Part shown: positions 4,537 to 16,738 of the stretch, one piece after another | Position numbering within the stretch: position 1 is the stretch's first letter | Layout: each line of letters starts with the position of its first letter | Notes under the pieces: model-generated | The model's input: only the letters and a program-made list of their open reading frames with translations | Databases searched by the model: none | What the model was told of the DNA's origin: nothing | Program-made: the position numbers and the translations under genes | Virus record (IMG/VR): IMGVR_UViG_3300045988_116319 | Length of the DNA: 16,738 nt | Reading direction: 5' to 3' (one strand) | Source: a virus

Positions 4537-6114
4537 TTAATTATTGGAAAGACCATAGTTTCCAACATCGTCCGTGTGCCAGAACGTAACGCCGCGGTTA
4601 AACATAGCCTGCAAAAAGTTAATATCATCGGTAACACATGAACCGTGTAAACCGCAATTTACAGTTTTGACAAAATTCCAGTTTGACCGCCCTGTGATAT
4701 TAGGGACTTTGATTTTGTGTGTAGCATATCCATACATGGTAAAATAATCGTCGATCGTTTTCGCCATCTGAGCGGTTACACTCATCACATGGCAGTAAAC
4801 TTGGCTGCCGAACAATGCAGCGGCAACATAACTTCCTGATGAATTTCCTTTTGCTGTTGGCGGTATCAGATCATGGCTTTCTTTCTGCGCATTGATATTT
4901 TCATTCAGCAAAAAAGTGCTAGTTGCCGCGTTAAAAATACTTTCTGCGCCTGCGGATAAATTACCACTTAATGCTCCGACCAATCCGCCCGTGAGATTTC
5001 CAATCTGAGAAATAGCATTCTGCTTTTTAGAATAGTCCCATAAAGGCGCGGTCTGCGCGAGAAAAGCTTGATAGCTGTCATTTGTCCACGCGCACTGTGG
5101 AAAATTGTTGAGGACAAAACCATAAGGGGATCTTTGTCCACCTGTATTTTTGTATTCGCGTGGGGCAATGAAAATTGATGGTATATTAAGCTGTACCCCG
5201 TATACTTGCATGGTTAATGCTCCATTTTTACCGTATTCGAAATTATAGGTATGCTGGACTCCCGAACCGTCATTTACCAAACAATAACAATACGGATATT
5301 GGAACAATTTATTGTTTTTTGGTTTATATCCATCTATAGTAACAGGTTGAATTGTTTTTTGTACATATACGCTAGTATCTGTCTTGAAACACGCTTCTGG
5401 AGCTTGATATACATTTACGATAGCATCTCCGTTTCCGCTTTTAACATACTTTTGGATAACAGTAATTAAATCGGTATAGGATTGTTTTCGCGTAAATGTC
5501 AAACCGGACAGAATACCTTGTATGGACACTGGAATAATATTAGTGCCATTTTCATCTGCGCTCGCAGATAAACAATATTGCATTTTTCCAAGATAAAGTA
5601 ACTGTTGTTCTGCCGGGTTATCCACGTACTCTCCCGTTTCAAGATTTTCCGGCACAAGATTAATTCCGACAAGATCAGCTTTTTTGTCAATGTGTTCTCT
5701 TTCCACATAGCACGGCTGTAAAACCACATCATAAAAACTGTTCTGGAATCTGTCGGGTTCGAAATAAATTTTGAAACTTCTGTCACTCAACCATTCTACG
5801 CGCGTTACAAACCCGAAATACCACTCTTCCGTATACGGCTTATTCTGGAAAGCAATGTAGTTACATTTCAGAAATTCACTCTCATTTCCTTTCCCTTTAT
5901 ATGTCAATTCTCCCCATCTCACGGGCGCGGACTGCTTGAAAATATGGATTGCCTTTTCCCTTACATGAGCAAGGCAGCCGTCTTTTCCGTTTTCGTAGTA
6001 TCGTACATGCTCATAATCGTTTCCCCACTCAATCCCACTTGCTAAAATTACCTCCGTCTGCGGGGAAACCGCCGCCACATTTTCTTGCGGCGGCATCGGA
6101 ATGAAATTATCCAT
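4537..6114 (-). CDS. Tail knob / distal tube protein (phi29 gp9-like), 525 aa
   Basis: The N-terminal IAFQNKPYTEEWYFGFVTRVEW parallels phi29 gp9 IMFQNADYGNKWFYAFVTELEF. The C-terminus YFTMYGYATHKIKVPNITGRSNWNFVKT...FNRGVTFWHTDDVGNY parallels gp9 [28 protein letters not shown]...FDNGITLWHTDNIGNY (recalled from memory). Lies between the capsid and portal genes as in phi29. Confidence 0.88.
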   Translation of the reverse strand: MDNFIPMPPQENVAAVSPQTEVILASGIEWGNDYEHVRYYENGKDGCLAHVREKAIHIFKQSAPVRWGELTYKGKGNESEFLKCNYIAFQNKPYTEEWYFGFVTRVEWLSDRSFKIYFEPDRFQNSFYDVVLQPCYVEREHIDKKADLVGINLVPENLETGEYVDNPAEQQLLYLGKMQYCLSASADENGTNIIPVSIQGILSGLTFTRKQSYTDLITVIQKYVKSGNGDAIVNVYQAPEACFKTDTSVYVQKTIQPVTIDGYKPKNNKLFQYPYCYCLVNDGSGVQHTYNFEYGKNGALTMQVYGVQLNIPSIFIAPREYKNTGGQRSPYGFVLNNFPQCAWTNDSYQAFLAQTAPLWDYSKKQNAISQIGNLTGGLVGALSGNLSAGAESIFNAATSTFLLNENINAQKESHDLIPPTAKGNSSGSYVAAALFGSQVYCHVMSVTAQMAKTIDDYFTMYGYATHKIKVPNITGRSNWNFVKTVNCGLHGSCVTDDINFLQAMFNRGVTFWHTDDVGNYGLSNN

Positions 6115-6130: not shown

Positions 6131-7441
6131 TTAATCGGTCGTAAAGTAAATAGTTGCATTTTTGTTAGAATCGAATCGGCTTGTAACCACAACCCGCACA
6201 CTTTCTGTTTTGTTTCCTTTCTGCTTCAGATTCTTTTCGTCTTTTGCGATTCTAAGAATTGTTGTTCCCGGGAGCACAAACGTATCAGTAGAAGAGTTAC
6301 CTTCTACTTTTACGTCTACTGCTTTATCCGCTACGCCAGTAGAAGTAACCGAAAACTTTGTACCAAAGTCGACATCTGTTCCAGCTTTTACCATTCCTAC
6401 ATCGCTTACTTCGATGCTCGAAACAAGAACTGGCTCTGTCGTAAACACAATAATTGGATAGAACAGGGAATAAGAGAACATCTCTTTCACCGTGTACGTG
6501 CTGTTCCATCTCAATCCACGGTTGACGTTATCCTGTACCATCATTCGGTACTGTTCACGGATTTTGAAAAACCGCTTGTCAACCAGTACAGCCACAATTT
6601 TATCCACATCGTTAAAGTTATCAATTAACACCTGTTGTGCTTTCGGGATCATACGGTCGAGATTGTATGCACTTGCATAGCTGTCAACGTTCATCGCGGC
6701 TTTGGTATCTGGATCGACAAACAGAAGAATGGTATCTTCTTTTGCAGCAGATGTCGCGCCAGCGAAATTGTACAGCGGGTTCGGGAATTGAATCTTGTCG
6801 ATGTAACTCTGAATTTGTTTTGCAAGTGCGTTCGCGGATGCCTGATCCTTAACCGCATCCACATGAACCGGGTAAATCTGACCAGCGCGCTTTGCAGACG
6901 CAATCAGTTCTTTTGCAGTTGTGAACTCATCCCAATTACAAGCGGAAACGACACTTTCCACTTTTGCCTGAACGAGACTGCGCAAACCGTAATCATCGAG
7001 AAACGCGCCGCGCATATCTTCAAACCAGATGGTCACAGGATAATCGTTGTTGAAATTGATCTTGTGATACAGTGCCATGATGTAGCTGTCATAAATTGCA
7101 GTAGCATCTTCGATGCTGATGTTGGCATCGTGTGCGTATCCCTGTGCAAAGTTTACGTAAACTTCCTGTTCTCCATTACCAAACGGCATGGCGTTACTGT
7201 TCAGCACTCTCAGCGGATTTCGAAACGCTTCCGTGCTGATTGACTGGCTGGCAATCAGATTAACCAACGCCGGAACAAGTTCATTCCGCGCCATCGGATT
7301 GTAAGGATCGGTTAATGTTTTTGCAATATCTGCAATATTTTCACGAGTTGCCACCGGAACTCTGTCACGGTAGTCAACGCTCATAGTCTGCCGAACGGCG
7401 TTCAGCATGTTAATATTTGTCATATCAAGTTTTTCTGACAT
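6131..7441 (-). CDS. Major capsid protein (phi29 gp8-like, HK97 fold with C-terminal Ig-like/BIG2-type domain), 436 aa
   Basis: AVLVDKRFFKIREQYRMMVQDNVNRGLRWNSTY aligns with phi29 gp8 [33 protein letters not shown] (from memory). The C-terminal ~90 aa (VSSIEVSDVG...VTSTGVADKAVDVKVEG...) look like an Ig-like decoration domain, as in gp8. SD ggagagtgaaacaATG, directly after the scaffold gene. Confidence 0.9.
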   Translation of the reverse strand: MSEKLDMTNINMLNAVRQTMSVDYRDRVPVATRENIADIAKTLTDPYNPMARNELVPALVNLIASQSISTEAFRNPLRVLNSNAMPFGNGEQEVYVNFAQGYAHDANISIEDATAIYDSYIMALYHKINFNNDYPVTIWFEDMRGAFLDDYGLRSLVQAKVESVVSACNWDEFTTAKELIASAKRAGQIYPVHVDAVKDQASANALAKQIQSYIDKIQFPNPLYNFAGATSAAKEDTILLFVDPDTKAAMNVDSYASAYNLDRMIPKAQQVLIDNFNDVDKIVAVLVDKRFFKIREQYRMMVQDNVNRGLRWNSTYTVKEMFSYSLFYPIIVFTTEPVLVSSIEVSDVGMVKAGTDVDFGTKFSVTSTGVADKAVDVKVEGNSSTDTFVLPGTTILRIAKDEKNLKQKGNKTESVRVVVTSRFDSNKNATIYFTTD

Positions 7442-9714: not shown

Positions 9715-9995
9715 GTTTCAACCTCCTTATCCTGCCATTTTAACCAGTCCTCAATTTCACTTAATTTATCACACATGATAAAGTTATGAATGAATCGGAC
9801 TGGCGATTTACAATTATACGCGTTACCATCCATAAAAAAGAAATCCCACAAATACCGGATATGAGACTCATAATTTTCATGTGGGACAAAGATCAACGTG
9901 TCTTTTTCGTCCCCTTTATAGCGTACCGTATAAGCAAGATAATCATTTTCTTTTTTCATCATTCCTACAATCATATTTAAAACGATACTTGACAT
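9705..9995 (-). CDS. Hypothetical protein, 96 aa (first gene after the structured leader)
   Basis: An ATG ORF with SD gaaaggagcaaagATG, overlapping the holin start by 10 nt. I recognise no family. Confidence 0.55.
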   Translation of the reverse strand: MSSIVLNMIVGMMKKENDYLAYTVRYKGDEKDTLIFVPHENYESHIRYLWDFFFMDGNAYNCKSPVRFIHNFIMCDKLSEIEDWLKWQDKEVETWM

Positions 9996-10010
9996 CTTTG
10001 CTCCTTTCTT

Positions 10011-10099
10011 CCCGTCCTTTGAAAAAACAAGGAAACCTTTTGACCTGCCAAGGACGGGGCGGTTTACTCAACCGTGGCAACCCCTCTAAAAAGGTTTCC
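10011..10099 (-). ncRNA. Structured leader / terminator-like element (interleaved 11-bp and 9-bp helices plus U-tract)
   Basis: On the minus-strand RNA, ggaaacctttt (10099-10089) pairs with aaaaggtttcc (10041-10031) and is followed by ttgtttttt (10030-10022). A second perfect 9-bp helix pairs cccgtcctt (10058-10050) with aaggacggg (10019-10011). Its arms interleave with the first helix and end 5 nt before the SD of the 96-aa ORF. Type is uncertain: attenuator, small RNA or simply a terminator. Confidence 0.45.
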
Positions 10100-10109
10100 C
10101 CGTATTTTC

Positions 10110-10138
10110 ATGATACATCTATTATGTCAGTATGTCAA
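10110..10138 (-). promoter_or_regulatory. Sigma-A-like promoter (candidate promoter of the lysis/structural block)
   Basis: On the minus strand: TTGACA (10138-10133), a 17-nt spacer, then TATCAT (10115-10110). Located 25 nt downstream of the ATPase stop. Confidence 0.5.
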
Positions 10139-10162: not shown

Positions 10163-11329
10163 CTATTTGTAAAGATCAATCCCCAGCAACTCAACCGCCA
10201 TATTCTTACTGTCCAGATCGTCAAAACGCAAGTATGCTTTCCGGTACGCGTCAACCAGATTTTCAAACAAATAATCATAGTGTTCCAACATAACCGTGTT
10301 TTGGGTGTGGTCGCCATCCCGAAAAACAGCAACAAAATTACAAGACGGGTTATAGTTGTGCGTGATATAGATGTACCCCTCTTCGTAATACTCATATACC
10401 CCATAGCTTTTTCCGCTGTGTTCGATCGTAAACAGATACCGCGACCGTCCGGTCGGCTTCTGGACAAACACACCATCGTCAATCAACATCTGATCCCCGA
10501 CACTCATACTCTGCATATAATGCCCGCCGCGGAATGCTTTCAAAGCGGTGTTCTCCCACATTGCCTTATTTGCGCTGTCATTGTGTGTAAATTCACAAAC
10601 AAACCCACTTCCATGCATCATTTTTGTTTCTTTCTGATATCTCTTATGGATACCAAAAAATACAAAATAAGGATTGAGCAACGAGATATTATTGGATGCC
10701 ATAACTAATTTAAACCATCTGGATTGGCTTCCGTTTCCACGGCTGATCGTCAATAACAACGATTGCAGTTTTTCGGATTCCCCTTTTACGTATTGCCCGC
10801 TTTCCATGCTAAACTCATCAAAAAACAAAAAGTAGATATCCCGAAAATACGGTGACAGCTTTTTTACGCTGTCCATCTTACTTCCAAAACTAAACGCGCA
10901 ACCGAACGGCACACCGTCCAGAAAATAGCGCACGACATTTCCGTTTTTGTCCAGATTTTTATAAGTAACCACACTTCCTAATTTTGGATACATGCTAAGC
11001 ATATCTTCATACATTGCCGCCGCTCCCGTCATTTCCCCTTTTGTACGAAAGATCCATCCGGTCTGCAATCCATACTCTTTGCACAAAATACAACTAGCCG
11101 CGGCGAACGCACTTGTCTTTCCGGCACTACGGTTGGAACATGTAATTGCCACGCCAGCGAAATCCCCGTCCACGTCTGGTTCCGTAAATAGTCGGATCGG
11201 GTTATAATACTCTATCGGATTTCCTTTATCGTCTACCCCCCAAAATTTTACATCATAAGCAGCAAAAAGTTTTTCCCATTGAATATCGTTCCAAAAAATC
11301 ATTGTTTCACGTGAAACATTTTGTTTCAC
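10163..11329 (-). CDS. DNA encapsidation (packaging) ATPase, phi29 gp16-like, 388 aa as tracked
   Basis: Walker A-like CSNRSAGKTSAF and Walker B-like IYFLFFDEF. The size class and presence in a phi29-type gene set fit. The start is uncertain: GTG 11329 lies 1 nt after GGAGGA (too close), and the next in-frame ATG is at 11302 (379 aa). Confidence 0.8.
   Translation of the reverse strand: MKQNVSRETMIFWNDIQWEKLFAAYDVKFWGVDDKGNPIEYYNPIRLFTEPDVDGDFAGVAITCSNRSAGKTSAFAAASCILCKEYGLQTGWIFRTKGEMTGAAAMYEDMLSMYPKLGSVVTYKNLDKNGNVVRYFLDGVPFGCAFSFGSKMDSVKKLSPYFRDIYFLFFDEFSMESGQYVKGESEKLQSLLLTISRGNGSQSRWFKLVMASNNISLLNPYFVFFGIHKRYQKETKMMHGSGFVCEFTHNDSANKAMWENTALKAFRGGHYMQSMSVGDQMLIDDGVFVQKPTGRSRYLFTIEHSGKSYGVYEYYEEGYIYITHNYNPSCNFVAVFRDGDHTQNTVMLEHYDYLFENLVDAYRKAYLRFDDLDSKNMAVELLGIDLYK
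11303..11318. promoter_or_regulatory. parS site 1 (perfect 16-bp ParB/Spo0J consensus palindrome), plus adjacent half-site 11322-11331
   Basis: An exact TGTTTCACGTGAAACA, matching the Bacillus/bacterial parS consensus TGTTNCACGTGAAACA. TGTTTCACGT is repeated 3 nt further on (11322-11331). Confidence 0.75.
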
Positions 11330-11465: not shown

Positions 11466-11500
11466 TATAAAAAGAGCTACGCTGGAAAACGTAGCTCTTT
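11466..11500 (-). terminator. Rho-independent terminator ending the replication-gene transcription unit
   Basis: On the minus strand, the stem gagctacg (with loop ttttccag) pairs with cgtagctc and is followed by tttttat. The stem extends to 11 bp with A-U pairs (11471-11481 / 11490-11500). Located 113 nt downstream of the SSB-like gene stop. Confidence 0.75.
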
Positions 11501-12585: not shown

Positions 12586-14754
12586 CTATTCTGGTAAAAC
12601 TCCGTCTTGAGAGTTTAACAATACTTCGTAGTATTCATTCGTTACACCTAAAGTATAAGTGGTATCAAGGATTCCAATGTTACTAGCCGTTAAAATTTCT
12701 TCCCCGTTTACTTTGATGTAATGGGGTTTCGAGTTGTTAAAGCAACTGATTGTCCGTCCGACATTTTCCATCCGGCGGCAAAGCCGGAAATTATTACAGC
12801 ATTTTAAGTTTTCCGCGCCAAGTTTCTTATTCATTCCAGCGACCGTAGACGTAAAACGCACGGGATCTTTGCCAGATTGTGTTGCTTTTTCGTCCCATTC
12901 CACGCCGCAGTATTTTTTCGCGCCAAGGGTTTTAAACTGAAAATAGAGGTCATCCATATCCCAAACGCCGAGAATGTAACGGTTCTCTCCAACGTCACAA
13001 AACGCCGGAATGTCGTTTTCGATTGCACGTTTGGCAAGTATTTTGTTTTTAGCTTCAAATTCCGGAATGTGTATATCCGGACGCAGAAATTTGATACTGT
13101 CAGTATCGCAGTACACAACATCCATTCCAACCACGTCAAGCATATCTTGTAACTGTTTTCTTGCGTGAGCAGTAACATAGATTCCCCATTGATAGTGCAA
13201 AAAGCTGTTTTTTCCATCATAGTACGTGTTCAGTGCTTTTTCCGCATCTGCTTTTTCCCGATGCCATTCACCCGTAACAGCATCCATTGCCCATTCGTCT
13301 TGCAACAGATCGGTTACGCACATCCCGAATGTACTGTTTAACTTATTTTTAGACTTCATGTATTCGTACACTTTATCGGGGTTTCCTTTCAACTTGCTCT
13401 TTGCGATAAAAAATGACATCATCGTTTTCCGCATACTATCCGGTAACTTTCCGCGCGCGGCTACGTAGCATTCTGACACGGTAAAGAAATCATAGTCATA
13501 TTGATTTTTTATAATCGACAAGTCAATTTCCGTCATTGCTATTTCACAGCAATTCATAGACAATACGCGTCCATTATCAATCACACAATCTTTCCCGTAC
13601 TTCTGACACTTTGACATCGGGATATAAGGGACGGGGATGTTTTCTTTGATACGCAAGTTGTCAAATTGTACCCGCATAATAACACAGCTGGTAGCACACA
13701 AGTTGTCAAACTGTTCCTGCGTTGTGATCTCAACCGCCCGGAACGCACTCATTGGATAATACTCCGTTGCGATCTGCGCCGGATAACTACTCGAGATATC
13801 CATACTACTCATAACGATCGCAGATTCACCTTTTTTCGCCGTGATCGTGTGACCAGCGTGGATGCGGTTAGCGTGCGTATTACCGCCGCGGAACGCATCT
13901 TTGCAGAGTTGGTATTGTGGTAACGTTAAAGCCAGATCGGCAAATACTCCCGGATAATAACCGCTATCTGCCTGCATGGCGCGGCGAAATTCGCGGCGGA
14001 CGTAGCCAGTAGAGGTAAGGGGGATTTCTGCAAGGTTGTCATCTTTTCGTAAGGCGCGGATGCATTCGCACAAACCGCGAACATCATTGTAGCAATATCC
14101 CTGTTCAACGTCCGTTAAAGGTGTTTTTGGTGTACGTAGTTTTTTATAGTCATACGTATCAACCAGTTTATAGTGGGTTACGCCCTCACTGTTTTCACAA
14201 AATTTTGAAAGACTCATGTTGCTTAAAAAATACGAGCATCGAAACTCAATCCCGTATTTATACGCATAACATTTCATAACTTTATGTGCATCCCGCGCAA
14301 AGATTTCATCTAATTCTATGAAATCTTTCATGAACTGAAATTCATACGACAGATTGTGAACGTAGACTACAGCGCGTTTCGTATCAGAAGTGTTCAAATA
14401 CAAATGTAAACCCTCACAGAAAGTAAGAAATTCATTCCAGTTACGTCCGAAACATACAGTATCTTTCAAACAGAACTGCCAGTGGTACATGAAAGCTTCA
14501 CCTTTTACTACTTTTACCCCTGTTTTGTTATAGCGTTCATAATCGAGTTTTTCCAACGTAGTTGTTTCGATGTCAAACGCCATTTCCACGTCATAATAGA
14601 TGATAGGTTTTTTCTTTCTTCCGCGTTTGCGGCATTCTCGCAACGTCTGGTAATCTGAAAAAGGAAAGTCTACAACGGAATATACTGTTTCACGTGAAAC
14701 ATCTTCGATTCCGTTTATGATAACAGGAACATTTAATTCATACATGATATACAC
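12586..14754 (-). CDS. Family-B, protein-primed DNA polymerase (phi29 gp2-like), 722 aa
   Basis: Exo I is FDIETT, Exo II is HNLSYEFQF and Exo III is YCYNDVRGL. Motif A is MDISSSYPAQ, motif B is KLNSTFGMC and motif C is YCDTDSIKF. The KxY motif is LGAKKYCG. Start is GTG 14754 (tracked) or ATG 14745. Confidence 0.93.
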   Translation of the reverse strand: MYIMYELNVPVIINGIEDVSRETVYSVVDFPFSDYQTLRECRKRGRKKKPIIYYDVEMAFDIETTTLEKLDYERYNKTGVKVVKGEAFMYHWQFCLKDTVCFGRNWNEFLTFCEGLHLYLNTSDTKRAVVYVHNLSYEFQFMKDFIELDEIFARDAHKVMKCYAYKYGIEFRCSYFLSNMSLSKFCENSEGVTHYKLVDTYDYKKLRTPKTPLTDVEQGYCYNDVRGLCECIRALRKDDNLAEIPLTSTGYVRREFRRAMQADSGYYPGVFADLALTLPQYQLCKDAFRGGNTHANRIHAGHTITAKKGESAIVMSSMDISSSYPAQIATEYYPMSAFRAVEITTQEQFDNLCATSCVIMRVQFDNLRIKENIPVPYIPMSKCQKYGKDCVIDNGRVLSMNCCEIAMTEIDLSIIKNQYDYDFFTVSECYVAARGKLPDSMRKTMMSFFIAKSKLKGNPDKVYEYMKSKNKLNSTFGMCVTDLLQDEWAMDAVTGEWHREKADAEKALNTYYDGKNSFLHYQWGIYVTAHARKQLQDMLDVVGMDVVYCDTDSIKFLRPDIHIPEFEAKNKILAKRAIENDIPAFCDVGENRYILGVWDMDDLYFQFKTLGAKKYCGVEWDEKATQSGKDPVRFTSTVAGMNKKLGAENLKCCNNFRLCRRMENVGRTISCFNNSKPHYIKVNGEEILTASNIGILDTTYTLGVTNEYYEVLLNSQDGVLPE
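14686..14701. promoter_or_regulatory. parS site 2 (perfect 16-bp ParB/Spo0J consensus palindrome)
   Basis: An exact TGTTTCACGTGAAACA within codons 18-23 of the polymerase gene. It encodes VSRET, the same pentapeptide as at site 1 in the long ATPase reading frame. Confidence 0.75.
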
Positions 14755-16049: not shown

Positions 16050-16738
16050 TTACACACATATTCACGCCGCGCCGTGTCCGTCTCCCGGAAAGCTACAGCC
16101 TCCGACTGTCATCGGCAGACAACCGCGGAGCGTTCGCGCAGCGGATGCAAAGCGCCGTGTCCGTCTCCCGGAAAGCTACATCCTCCAGCTGTCATCGGCA
16201 GACAACCGCGGAGCGTTCGCGGAACGGATGCAAAGCGCCGTGTCCTCACCCGCGGAGAGCTACAGCCTCCAGCTGTCATCGACAGACAACCGCGGAGCGG
16301 ATGCGGAGCGGATGCAAAGCGCCGTGTCCGTCACCCGCGGACACTTTAGCAGACTAAAGTGAGTCCCCGTCTCCGATGTGTCCGCGACCCGCGGACAAAC
16401 GGGCGGTTTTGTCCACTTTCCGGGAAAAATGAGTAAGTATTACGGAAGAATTGTGTGTGAATCGGTCGGAAACCGTGAATATTTGATGAATTGTATAGAC
16501 AATTAGGCGTGACTAACACTTTAGTCGGGTAAAGTGTATTTGTCAAGTTGGAAAAATGCATAAAAATTTCGGGTTTATGTGTTTGAAAAAGTATTGAAAA
16601 GTGAATAAATGCAATGTAATAGTTTGCAAAAGCGGTGTCCGCGTGGGAAAGACACCGCTTTTGTTGTGCATTGTGCTGTCCGCCGTACGCGGACAAAATT
16701 GGGAAAATGTCCGCGTGGGACGGACTATATTTATATTT
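16050..16738. repeat. Right inverted terminal repeat (ITR-R), 689 bp including a 250-bp tandem-repeat expansion
   Basis: 16319-16738 is the reverse complement of 1-420 (one mismatch). 16050-16087 is the reverse complement of 402-439. The intervening sequence is the tandem array, which is absent from ITR-L. Confidence 0.95.
16069..16341. repeat. Tandem direct repeats, 3 full units (83, 83, 84 bp) plus a partial fourth
   Basis: Units start with gcgccgtgtcc at 16069, 16152, 16235 and 16319. Units 1 and 2 are near-identical. Unit 3 diverges at both ends (gtcctcacccgcggagagc, and ggagcggatgcggagcggatgc). The left ITR has only the single junction copy. Confidence 0.9.

Follow-up and report, generated by a model that had tools for sequence, protein, structure and literature searches.

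Does the short region between the packaging ATPase gene and the late operon of this gut phage encode a packaging RNA, or does it serve only the operon behind it? Prohead RNA (pRNA) is, to our knowledge, the only RNA essential to a viral DNA-packaging motor, and RNA nanotechnology makes heavy use of it. According to a 2024 review, the phages known to have it are confined to phi29 and its Bacillus relatives (PMC11476376), which raises the question of how the ATPase is docked onto the portal in the many other phages that share the short gp16 type. The RNA described here is a candidate for the packaging RNA that has never been found outside Bacillus phages.

The window, meaning the whole 16,738-nt stretch analysed (IMG/VR record IMGVR_UViG_3300045988_116319), is the complete 16.7-kb genome of a phi29-like podovirus of the gut, with 420-bp inverted terminal repeats. 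It carries a phi29-type gene set comprising the gp16 ATPase, the gp10 connector (PF05352, E=1.8e-30), a phi29 capsid protein (Phi29_MCP, E=1.3e-65), the gp9 tail knob and a protein-primed-type polymerase. The ATPase gene, with its TAG stop at 10165-10163 on the minus strand, lies immediately upstream of the RNA element. Downstream, the 96-aa gene that opens the late operon is followed by genes for a holin, an endolysin, a tail lysozyme, the phi29-type capsid protein, the tail knob, the connector and a collar protein. The element is the sole route from a promoter into this operon, and the first Shine-Dalgarno sequence stands directly behind it. A megablast search of the whole genome against 50,697 phage records returned no match; judged by the ATPase protein, Clostridium phage HM2 (42%) comes nearest among cultured phages. 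Neither ARAGORN nor the Rfam tRNA model detected a tRNA or tmRNA in the window. In phi29, a basic RKR-type tail at the N-terminus of the connector binds the pRNA; the N-terminus of the window's connector was inspected for such a tail as a hint of RNA binding, and none was found.

The first-pass annotation of this region had described a near-consensus promoter, an 11-bp helix closed by a U-run in the manner of a terminator, and a 9-bp helix interleaved with the first, and all of these proved exact in their coordinates (Table 1). The -35 element begins 25 nt past the ATPase stop, and no other site on that strand of the window scores as high as the promoter (11/12). Among 75 distinct relatives the -35 hexamer is conserved at 100%, the -10 at 98% and the spacer at 87%, and the arrangement TTGACA-17-TATCAT/TAAGAT/TATTAT is also retained in the 70-75% clades.

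Table 1. Features of the RNA locus and its flanking genes, in window coordinates.
Feature	Coordinates	Strand	Remarks
gp16-type DNA-encapsidation (packaging) ATPase gene	10163..11329	-	Pfam PF05894 Podovirus_Gp16, E=3.6e-26; PHROG 2150 terminase, E=6.9e-42
Sigma-A type promoter: -35 TTGACA (10138-10133), 17-nt spacer, -10 TATCAT (10115-10110)	10110..10138	-	Predicted start near A10103
Helix 1 (A-helix-like) 5' arm, ACGG-GGAAACCUUUU	10089..10103	-	Starts at the predicted RNA 5' end; pairs with 10041-10027
Variable junction, UAGA	10085..10088	-	Relatives have AAAAA, UCAGA or UCAUG; conservation 73%, the lowest in the RNA
GGGG, 5' strand of short C-like helix	10081..10084	-	Complementary to CCCC 10059-10056
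UUGCCA, CE-loop-like strand (6-nt bulge)	10075..10080	-	In the MFE fold, 5' side of a nested helix
E-like hairpin, CGGUU-GAGUA-AACCG	10060..10074	-	GNRA-like pentaloop, fourth base varies; double changes in 2/5 pairs
CCCC, 3' strand of C-like helix	10056..10059	-	Also within the helix 2 5' arm
Helix 2 5' arm, CCCGUCCUU	10050..10058	-	Perfect 9 bp with 10019-10011
D-like hairpin, GUCC-[UUGGCA]-GGUC	10042..10055	-	One U-U mismatch; loop complementary to CE strand
Closing helix 3' arm, AAAAGGUUUCC-UUGU	10027..10041	-	Pairing and compensatory changes
U-run, UUGUUUUUU	10022..10030	-	With helix 1 resembles an intrinsic terminator
Helix 2 3' arm, AAGGACGGG	10011..10019	-	Downstream of the U-run, directly upstream of the Shine-Dalgarno
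Shine-Dalgarno GAAAGGAG (10008-10001) and ATG (9995-9993) of first late ORF	9993..10008	-	Unpaired in predicted folds
First late-operon gene, 96 aa	9705..9995	-	Without family match

The closing helix (helix 1) has a core of 11 perfect base pairs, GGAAACCUUUU (10099-10089) with AAAAGGUUUCC (10041-10031), and G-U, C-G and A-U pairs lengthen it to 10103/10027. Across 78 aligned sequences both sides have changed in nine of its 15 pairs, and 99.6% of the cells remain paired. In every clade, 0-4 nt separate the start of the helix from the predicted 5' end. Its G+C-containing stem (GGGGAAACC/GGUUUCC) runs directly into UUGUUUUUU, and at least five U residues occupy the 9 nt past the last G-C pair in 75 of the 78 relatives; the run is weak in L083 and L213 (4 U of 9) and deleted in L038 (2 U). 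A consensus terminator scan left helix 1 and its U-run uncalled because the structured loop measures 47 nt.

That loop is 98% conserved, above the flanking coding sequence, and the element itself recurs in roughly 100 contigs of related gut phages. Motif scans, run on viral, metagenome and genome collections, found it confined to gut phage contigs of ~15-17 kb. In 185,579 bacterial and archaeal genomes the core motif was absent save for five chance hits without the flanking helices; all motif hits beyond the phage clade (L094, L123, L164, L182, L191, L198, L207-L211 and L300) lack these helices and were rejected as chance. Searches with Rfam at gathering and E-value thresholds, covering the window, the local region and 16 relatives, matched the element to no family. 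Relatives were recovered productively by alignment-seeded scans, the single-protein seeds P0010 and P0024 having given almost nothing. For the divergent members a model-based alignment (A5) was used, as helix 1 was out of register in the MAFFT alignment (A3).

When the 167-nt intergenic sequence was shuffled 2000 times, a perfect stem of at least 11 bp arose three times and one of at least 9 bp 58 times, and the two together never. The z-score of the folding MFE is only -2.1, and the case thus stands on comparative evidence and not on folding energy. In the 78 sequences, 14 pairs have changed on both sides, as against 4.4 +/- 1.3 in shuffles and at most five in slid controls. These compensatory changes fall in three helices, namely the closing helix, an inner E-like hairpin and the interleaved helix 2, so that both helices of the original annotation are upheld by covariation. 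A covariance model of the window clade (R1) scores 138 bits on the minus strand and 28 on the plus strand; together with the G-U pairs, this fixes the strand of the RNA as minus, the gene strand. The comparison thereby establishes a conserved structured RNA of the gene strand, its first and last ~15 nt paired, which the conserved near-consensus promoter is predicted to drive.

The two-helix description captured both of the helices that it named and overlooked the anatomy between them, where the GGGG:CCCC pairing, the CGGUU-GAGUA-AACCG hairpin and the UGCCA:UGGCA complementarity are set out as in pRNA. GGGG:CCCC is invariant or G-U within the window clade and has counterparts in UGGG:CCCA (L214) and GCGG:CCGC (L084). 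UGCCA is complementary to the loop sequence UGGCA at 10050-10046, with 98.7% of pairs kept, and corresponds to UGCC:GGCG in L214 and CGAC:GUCG in L084. The complementarity fits an ordinary nested helix just as well, and the MFE takes that form; sequence does not distinguish an intramolecular from an intermolecular pairing. The double changes of the E-like hairpin are GC/UA/AU and UA/CG/UG; its loop reads GAGUA, GAGCA or GAGAA, and becomes a GAGA tetraloop in the 48% clades. At no more than 3-4 bp the C and D helices are short, and they hardly vary in the window clade, for which reason their support is a single covarying pair, C10052-G10045 of the D stem (C-G in 72 sequences, U-A in four, U-G in two). 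L214 and L084 have GC-rich 4-bp equivalents of the D hairpin. Over the alignment, 96.3% of cells are paired in the pRNA-like fold, which is calculated at -29.6 kcal/mol before a loop-loop duplex of -7.0, against -32.1 for the nested fold, placing it within 2.5 kcal/mol of the MFE without the loop-loop pairing. The same five-part layout, in different sequences and as aligned by eye, occurs in L214 and L084, which belong to the 48-49% ATPase clades. Model R1 misses these RNAs and those of the HM2 class described below, and the correspondence with both was drawn by manual parsing and checked by script.

Helix 2 shows the best covariation within the window clade. At pair 10056/10013 the sequences have U-A (61), C-G (ten), U-G (four) or G-U (one), and at pair 10054/10015 they have U-A (56) or U-G (21). 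In L082 (CGCCCUGU:ACAGGGCG), L212 (CGCCCU:AGGGCG) and L083 (CCCUGUCU:AGACAGGG) the helix is shifted in register with complementarity kept, and in the natural variants L025, L038, L058, L079 and L103 it is down to about 5 bp. The order of arms, 1-2-1'-2', creates either a pseudoknot or a competing fold, as had been proposed from the window alone. Because CCCC (10059-10056) overlaps the 5' arm of helix 2 (10058-10050), the C-like helix and helix 2 are mutually exclusive; the same arm also takes in the 5' half of the D stem. Masking of the Shine-Dalgarno sequence by these structures was rejected, since it and the AUG are unpaired in every predicted fold.

Other clades of phi29-like phages carry RNAs at the same place. 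The clade comparison was made among the matches listed, 80 per scan, from 500+ gp16 loci in IMG/VR. Among these matches, an RNA of ~95 nt lies directly past the ATPase stop in L217, L219-L223, L227, L229 and L308, and likewise in the cultured Clostridium phage HM2, having its own promoter and a strong terminator, with a separate late promoter behind. It is predicted to fold as a three-way junction, and the complementarity between its bulge and a loop covaries (UGACU:AGUCA, AGACA:UGUCU, AACUA:UAGUU, GUAGUCU:AGACUAC). This HM2-class RNA bears no annotation in the records, and no description of it was found in the literature searched. In L214, L218 and L084 a tRNA-like element (Rfam tRNA, 56 bits) lies downstream of the RNA and would allow its release by tRNA-processing enzymes. 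In one gut clade (L313 and others) there is no gap behind the ATPase gene. By eye, the cultured phages CS229P1-3 may carry a related RNA.

The reading preferred here, tentatively and at somewhat less than an even chance, is that the element is a miniature equivalent of prohead RNA fused to the late leader. The RNA of ~80 nt would be the packaging RNA of the phage, encoded beside the ATPase that it would serve. The closing helix and U-run would stop a share of the transcripts and so free the small RNA, and the lysis and structural genes would be expressed solely from the transcripts that read through. In the read-through mRNA the 9-bp helix would refold the leader by unfolding the C and D helices, and the leader would therefore not act as packaging RNA. 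The UGCCA:UGGCA pairing may form within one molecule or between molecules, as a ring of the phi29 kind. A compact prohead-RNA analogue beside the ATPase gene was one of three roles that the first-pass annotation had named with none preferred, and it is the option best supported by synteny and architecture; in its favour, too, Rfam searches of the window brought up no other pRNA candidate. The preferred reading is weakened by the absence of a match to the pRNA family RF00044 and by the covariation of helix 2, which ties the RNA to the mRNA leader and fits a cis-acting role. Also against it are the small size of the RNA, the shortness of its C and D helices, the nested alternative for UGCCA:UGGCA, the weak or deleted U-run of L083, L213 and L038, the connector lacking a basic tail, and the gut clade with no gap behind its ATPase gene. 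A wider proposal, which we hold more loosely, is that small phi29-like phages of gut and clostridial Firmicutes use an unrecognised, fast-evolving packaging RNA adjacent to gp16. The window would hold its most reduced form, a three-way-junction RNA of ~80 nt in which the closing helix, as a leaky terminator, yields pRNA from terminated transcripts and late mRNA from read-through, and the competing helix switches the leader out of the pRNA fold.

The strongest alternative, possible though on balance unlikely, is a purely cis-acting leader of the late operon, in which helix 1 and the U-run would be an attenuator holding back the lysis and structural genes behind a strong promoter until a phage factor that reads the conserved loops brings about antitermination. 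Instead of this, or on top of it, the helix at the 5' terminus and the pseudoknot may lend stability to the mRNA or adjust how the operon's first gene is translated. The position of the element as the sole promoter route into the operon, directly before its Shine-Dalgarno sequence, agrees with such a role, as does the U-run kept in all but three relatives, and helix 2 joins the core to Shine-Dalgarno-proximal sequence with C-G/U-A/G-U covariation. In Firmicutes, mRNA 5' stabilisers have a helix at or near the 5' end, which is the geometry of helix 1 in every clade, and the GAG(N)A pentaloop resembles the boxB-type RNA loops that bind protein. However, an attenuation or antitermination switch, as originally suggested, calls for an alternative pairing before the terminator, and the 3' arm of helix 2 (10019-10011) is made only after the U-run; it therefore cannot decide termination or serve as a classical antiterminator of the transcript to which it belongs. 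With the U-run weak or deleted in L083, L213 and L038, pure attenuation is not the conserved core of the element. Also against the leader reading are the unpaired Shine-Dalgarno and AUG and the shrinking of helix 2 to about 5 bp in the five variants named above. Nor does leader function explain the sister clades, where the RNA either forms a gene apart, ended by a terminator of its own and followed by a separate late promoter, or is set off by a tRNA-like element.

That the RNA acts in trans in some other capacity, regulating mRNAs of the host or the phage, say, or serving as an anti-defence decoy, and lies beside the ATPase gene incidentally, is improbable. It has a strong promoter of its own and a terminator-like end, stand-alone small-RNA genes occupy the same place in other clades, and a published catalogue (PMC10690425) gives a highly expressed 86-nt candidate of Lachnospiraceae phages, DNAVirus_6258, from gut small-RNA data, which may or may not be the window element. 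Against this, no target or partner has been identified, and the conserved features are helices and an internal loop-bulge complementarity, without a single-stranded seed. The linkage to gp16 moreover lasts across clades whose RNA sequences are unrelated, which suggests that what the RNA does is connected with the packaging module.

A metabolite- or ion-sensing riboswitch controlling the late operon through its pseudoknot would suit a leader with highly conserved unpaired nucleotides directly before a Shine-Dalgarno sequence, yet it is very improbable: the element matches no Rfam family even at E<=10, its core motif is missing from cellular genomes apart from the five chance hits, its carriers are only gut phage contigs, the Shine-Dalgarno sequence is not sequestered, and helix 2 cannot influence the terminator. 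Scarcely credible, finally, is a plain terminator of the ATPase unit beside the late promoter with chance complementarities, for while a hairpin and U-run at a gene end is the commonest explanation of such a sequence and the z-score is modest, the comparative data contradict it, with the promoter upstream and not downstream of the hairpin, a loop conserved above coding sequence, three covarying helices and no shuffle that combined both stems.

A conserved gp16-linked RNA gene in several clades would make the question of ATPase docking directly testable, and one of the RNA-bearing clades includes the cultured phage HM2. If the preferred packaging-RNA reading is true, the element would provide new and much smaller self-assembling RNA scaffolds, and the fusion of pRNA and late leader through mutually exclusive pairings would be a new coupling of pRNA supply to late expression. 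Should it prove a leader only, abundant human-gut phages would still have yielded a pseudoknotted regulatory RNA that is both new and well supported.

Four known systems serve for comparison. In the PR'-tR'-Q arrangement of phage lambda, a terminator stands behind a strong promoter and an antitermination factor relieves it. The window is similar in having a strong promoter, a terminator-like hairpin ~80 nt on, and lysis genes followed by structural genes in one operon. It differs in that no Q- or N-like protein or binding site has been identified in it, the "loop" of its terminator is a conserved folded RNA, and the U-run is not in all relatives. The leader of T4 gene 32, a pseudoknotted translational operator presented in section 2.6 of PMC10690425, likewise places a pseudoknot upstream of an unstructured Shine-Dalgarno sequence at the 5' end of a phage mRNA; in the window, however, there is no sign that the 96-aa protein binds RNA, and the RNA of sister clades is uncoupled from the gene.

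The ~95-nt RNA of HM2 (LT600745) shares with the window RNA its position relative to gp16, an own promoter, a closing helix joining end to end, a bulge complementary to a hairpin loop and, if the pRNA-like layout of the window RNA holds, a three-way junction. Unlike the window RNA, it is a separate gene with a canonical strong terminator and a separate late promoter, and it has longer C and D helices and no sequence similarity.

From phi29 pRNA (RF00044) the window RNA differs in several ways. The RF00044 model gave no match in the window at the gathering score, at E<=10 or at E<=5, whereas the phi29 control scored 145.4 bits. The window RNA is 77-82 nt long (10103 to 10027-10022), as against 117-174 nt in known pRNAs, and its C and D helices have 3-4 bp where those of phi29 have 8-10. 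It adjoins gene 16 and is fused to the late-operon leader, whereas the phi29 pRNA gene lies at the genome end and yields a separate early transcript, and only the window RNA possesses a further pairing downstream, helix 2, in competition with the C and D helices. There are also likenesses. Both RNAs belong to genomes with a gp16 ATPase, a gp10 connector, a phi29 capsid protein and terminal repeats, both have a sigma-A promoter of their own, and both pair their 5' and 3' ends in a long closing helix. In the pRNA-like layout proposed for the window RNA, the parts follow in the order A, C, 5'-side CE bulge, E hairpin, C', D hairpin, A', identical to that of the Rfam pRNA consensus as placed on phi29, and GGGG ... 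UUGAGU ... CCC surrounds the E hairpin in both. In phi29, pairing of the CE bulge with the D loop between molecules forms the pRNA ring, and in the window RNA, too, the bulge is complementary to the D loop.

The 16,738 bases of the window represent a complete linear genome, as they are bounded by perfect 420-bp inverted terminal repeats (1-420 and 16319-16738), and the minus strand carries all of its genes. An inward-reading 116-aa ORF is present in each repeat (43-393, plus; 16346-16696, minus). The gene content is that of a phi29-like podovirus, with no DNA-level relatives among 50,697 phage records. By ATPase, the nearest cultured relative is Clostridium phage HM2 (42%), the next being phages of Clostridium symbiosum, and the relatives compared here come almost entirely from human-gut metagenomes. 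The last structural gene of one 72% relative, contig L082 (13817-15880, 687 aa), occupies the position of the window's 778-aa tail protein and carries Anti-Pycsar Apyc1 / metallo-beta-lactamase domains by precomputed Pfam assignment.

Coordinates of features in the window and of tRNA-like elements in related contigs
Feature	Position (nt)	Strand	Basis or context
B-family, protein-primed-type DNA polymerase	12586-14754	minus	profile search
gp16-type encapsidation ATPase	10163-11329	minus	PF05894, E=3.6e-26
ATPase stop codon	10165-10163	minus	sequence check
-35, TTGACA	10138-10133	minus	sequence check
-10, TATCAT	10115-10110 (17-nt spacer after -35)	minus	sequence check
Helix 1, GGAAACCUUUU with AAAAGGUUUCC	10099-10089 with 10041-10031	minus	sequence check
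U-run, UUGUUUUUU	10030-10022	minus	sequence check
Helix 2, CCCGUCCUU with AAGGACGGG	10058-10050 with 10019-10011	minus	sequence check
Shine-Dalgarno	10008-10001 (ATG at 9995)	minus	sequence check
96-aa ORF, holin, endolysin, tail lysozyme (after element)		minus	profile searches
phi29-type major capsid protein		minus	profile search, E=1.3e-65
gp9 tail knob, gp10 connector, lower collar		minus	profile searches
GTCCG-N7-CGGAC	14-30, 45-61, 343-359, 397-413; mirror copies at 16326-16725
tRNA-like element, contig L218	3731-3808 (identical in L214, ~4640-4720)		before first late gene's Shine-Dalgarno
tRNA-like element, contig L084	~6605-6665		before first late gene's Shine-Dalgarno

The first-pass annotation had placed a promoter, two interleaved helices and a U-run between the ATPase stop and the late genes, and every one of its coordinates proved right on the minus strand. 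The promoter, TTGACA-17-TATCAT, is the top match on its strand within the window. The element occurs in 80 of 80 IMG/VR contigs among the matches listed, in which the ATPase is 91-97% and the intergenic DNA 84-94% identical. Conservation is complete at the -35 and 98% at the -10, as against about 87% for the promoter spacer and the stretch upstream; the RNA core reaches 98%, above the adjoining coding sequence, and a 4-nt junction 73%. Distant members were retrieved via ATPase homologues at 86 (L081), 75 (L212), 72 (L082/L156) and 70% (L083/L213) identity. In these, both arms of helix 1 have new sequences that compensate fully (GGGGAGAGACGUA/UACGUCUUUCCUC; GGGGAGAGCGUUA/UAACGCACUCCUC, with one A-A mismatch; GGGGAGAACCGGA/UCCGGUUUUCCUC), the inner hairpin stem CGGUU/AACCG becomes CGUUU/AAACG, CGAUU/AAUCG or CGGCU/AGCCG, and helix 2 shifts in register with its pairing kept (CGCCCUGU:ACAGGGCG, CGCCCU:AGGGCG, CCCUGUCU:AGACAGGG). 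A covariance model from the close clade detects all of these distant contigs at 70-83 bits; the window itself gets 138 bits when read on the minus strand, against 28 on the plus. Within a 78-sequence alignment, 14 pairs are changed on both sides, compared with 4.4 +/- 1.3 in shuffles and at most 5 in slid controls; they comprise 9 of the 15 pairs of the extended helix 1, 2 of 5 in the hairpin and 3 of 8 in helix 2, which was left out of the covariance model behind the alignment. Because covariation exceeds the controls and numerous G-U pairs are present only when read on the minus strand, the element can be taken, on comparative grounds, as a real RNA transcribed in the gene direction.

Inside the arms of helix 1, the order is UAGA (variable), GGGG, UUGCCA, the hairpin CGGUU-GAGUA-AACCG, CCCC, GUCC, UUGGCA and GGUC. 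The hairpin loop behaves as GNRA-like, since its fourth base alone varies (GAGUA, GAGCA, GAGAA) and a GAGA tetraloop replaces the pentaloop in distant clades. The MFE fold contains a nested UUGCCA:UGGCAG helix, with CCCCGUCCU bulged out. An equally possible alternative pairs GGGG with CCCC and GUCC with GGUC (one U-U mismatch), leaving the bulge UUGCCA complementary to the loop UUGGCA; it lies 2.5 kcal/mol above the MFE before the -7.0 kcal/mol of the bulge-loop duplex is added. In the 70-72% clades, G10045->A is coupled with C10052->U: a C-G pair of the short hairpin stem turns into U-A, U-G intermediates also occurring, and in the nested fold an A-A mismatch results. The alternative fold explains this change; the nested fold does not. 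The same five-part layout was recovered, with script-checked pairings, in clades at 48-49% ATPase identity: UGGG:CCCA, bulge AUUGCCA, CUUUC-GAGA-GAAAG and GCGC-[AAGGCG]-GCGC in L214, and GCGG:CCGC, AGCGACA, UUCCU-GAGA-AGGAA and GCGU-[AAGUCG]-GCGC in L084. Bulge-loop complementarity is retained in both (UGCC:GGCG and CGAC:GUCG, respectively), the correspondence to the window RNA being a hand-made cross-clade alignment and the weakest link in the comparison.

Helix 2 excludes this pRNA-like fold, as it engages CCCC together with the 5' strand of the short hairpin. Since its 3' arm is made after the U-run, it can form only in read-through RNA, and a role as antiterminator is thereby ruled out. 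Its covariation is good: one pair occurs as U-A, C-G, G-U or U-G, a second as U-A or U-G. In several natural variants the helix is down to about 5 bp. Of 78 sequences, 75 keep five or more U among the 9 nt of the U-run; in L083 and L213 the run is weak, and from L038 it is deleted. The Shine-Dalgarno is unpaired in every predicted fold. Both competing pairings of C10052 are kept by compensation in L083, as U-A with 10045 and U-A with 10017, which suggests that two RNA states are under selection.

The promoter, the RNA, its helices, their competing pairings and the synteny are shown by these comparisons. The reading of them that we tentatively prefer, at somewhat under even confidence, is that the element encodes a prohead-RNA equivalent in miniature. 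A fraction of transcripts would stop at the U-run to yield an ~80-nt RNA, with helix 1 and the U-run as the release device of the window clade, and the remaining transcripts would be the sole late mRNA, its leader refolded by helix 2. Contrary to the pRNA part of this reading, the RNA lacks profile similarity and is half the size of pRNA, its C and D helices are very short with scant within-clade covariation, and the connector N-terminus is non-basic. The main rival, itself rather unlikely, dispenses with pRNA: the element would be a purely cis-acting leader, namely an attenuator working with a putative antitermination factor and/or a 5' stabiliser. A trans-acting small RNA in another role seems improbable. 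A widespread riboswitch is unlikely because the conserved core motif is confined to 15-17 kb gut-phage contigs; matches in bacterial genomes and elsewhere came without the flanking helices and were rejected. No Rfam family matched the element even at E<=10, and no tRNA or tmRNA was found within the window. Chance is also unlikely. Of 2000 shuffles of the 167-nt spacer, 3 produced a perfect stem of 11 bp or more, 58 one of 9 bp or more and none the two jointly; the folding z-score is by itself modest (-2.1).

Other clades of gp16-encoding small podophages also have a structured RNA, closed by its own two ends, directly after the ATPase stop. In the HM2 class (contigs L217, L219-L223, L227, L229 and L308, and cultured HM2), the promoter has its -35 inside the last ATPase codons, and an RNA of ~95 nt is followed by a strong canonical terminator and a separate late promoter. 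This RNA folds as a three-way junction: a bulge of 5-7 nt lies ahead of the first hairpin and the second has a loop of 6-9 nt, bulge and loop being complementary and covarying (UGACU:AGUCA, AGACA:UGUCU, AACUA:UAGUU, GACUA:UAGUC, GUAGUCU:AGACUAC). The embedded -35 (TTGACT or TTGACC) lies within the conserved C-terminal codons ...(V/I)DLYK* in L219-L223, L227, L229 and L298 (HM2); in HM2-type clades, the ATPase end and the promoter are therefore under mutual constraint. In L214, L218 and L084, a tRNA-like element stands between the RNA and the late-gene Shine-Dalgarno. This element scores 56 bits against the Rfam tRNA model and has a 16-nt anticodon loop, and ARAGORN calls nothing; it resembles a tRNA-type punctuation mark in the transcript, and the upstream RNA could be released by tRNA-processing enzymes. 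Further, different closing-helix RNAs were read by eye at the same place in L309-L311, L228 and the C. symbiosum phage clade (CS229P1; L352-L356), and a gut clade, L313 among its members, leaves no space 3' of the ATPase gene. Among these clades, a gp16-adjacent RNA arranged for release as a discrete molecule thus recurs.

Additional features were observed among these phages. The gut clade without a post-ATPase RNA has a tRNA directly 5' of the ATPase gene (1098-1170 in both L323 and L338, ~1105-1175 in L313), a suppressor with anticodon UUA in L323 and tRNA-Gln(UUG) in L338, a hint that some of these small podophages recode a stop codon. Two phi29-like contigs have type II hammerhead ribozymes in their early regions (L084, 986-1051; L223, 1238-1304; 39.5 and 39.2 bits versus a gathering score of 37), with none in the window. 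GTCCG-N7-CGGAC, perhaps a protein site or else a 3'-end hairpin, has four copies per terminal repeat (8 matches versus 0.02 expected). A G-U-wobble version, GUUUG-N7-CGGAC, begins at the G of the ATPase stop (10163-10147, minus), ~8 nt 5' of the late -35. The site reads GUCCG, GUUCG or GUUUG among relatives, so that an RNA hairpin is kept and not a DNA palindrome. The perfect 16-bp palindrome TGTTTCACGTGAAACA, probably an operator or shared hairpin, occurs twice (0.01 expected), over the ATPase gene start (11303-11318) and near the polymerase gene start (14686-14701). In relatives it turns up again 3' of the ATPase stop (CS229P1, L356), within the L220-L222 terminator hairpins and ahead of the L313 tRNA-like element. 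Since a clean intrinsic terminator, AAAGAGCUACG-UUUUCCA-GCGUAGCUCUUUUUA (~11467-11497, minus), separates the 139-aa gene from the ATPase gene, and no obvious promoter precedes the latter in the window, the ATPase gene may be a separately controlled unit.

To current knowledge, pRNA is restricted to phi29 and related Bacillus phages (2024 review, PMC11476376), and a paper on C. perfringens podoviruses names it only as the gp16 partner, reporting none (PMC3362512). Entries in a 2023 catalogue of candidate phage RNAs include six motifs 'upstream of Podovirus_gp16' and an 86-nt motif of Lachnospiraceae phages with high expression (PMC10690425). The Rfam pRNA model (RF00044) scores phi29 itself at 145 bits. 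The phi29 consensus runs A helix, C helix, 9-nt 5'-side bulge (CE), E hairpin, C', UUU, D hairpin and A', and the part order of the alternative fold of the window RNA is exactly the same. Both RNAs have GGGG ... UUGAGU ... CCC around the E hairpin, a likeness that may be coincidental because L214 and L084 are without UUGAGU. In phi29, the CE and D loops are described as pairing between molecules to form a ring on the prohead (PMC4201828).
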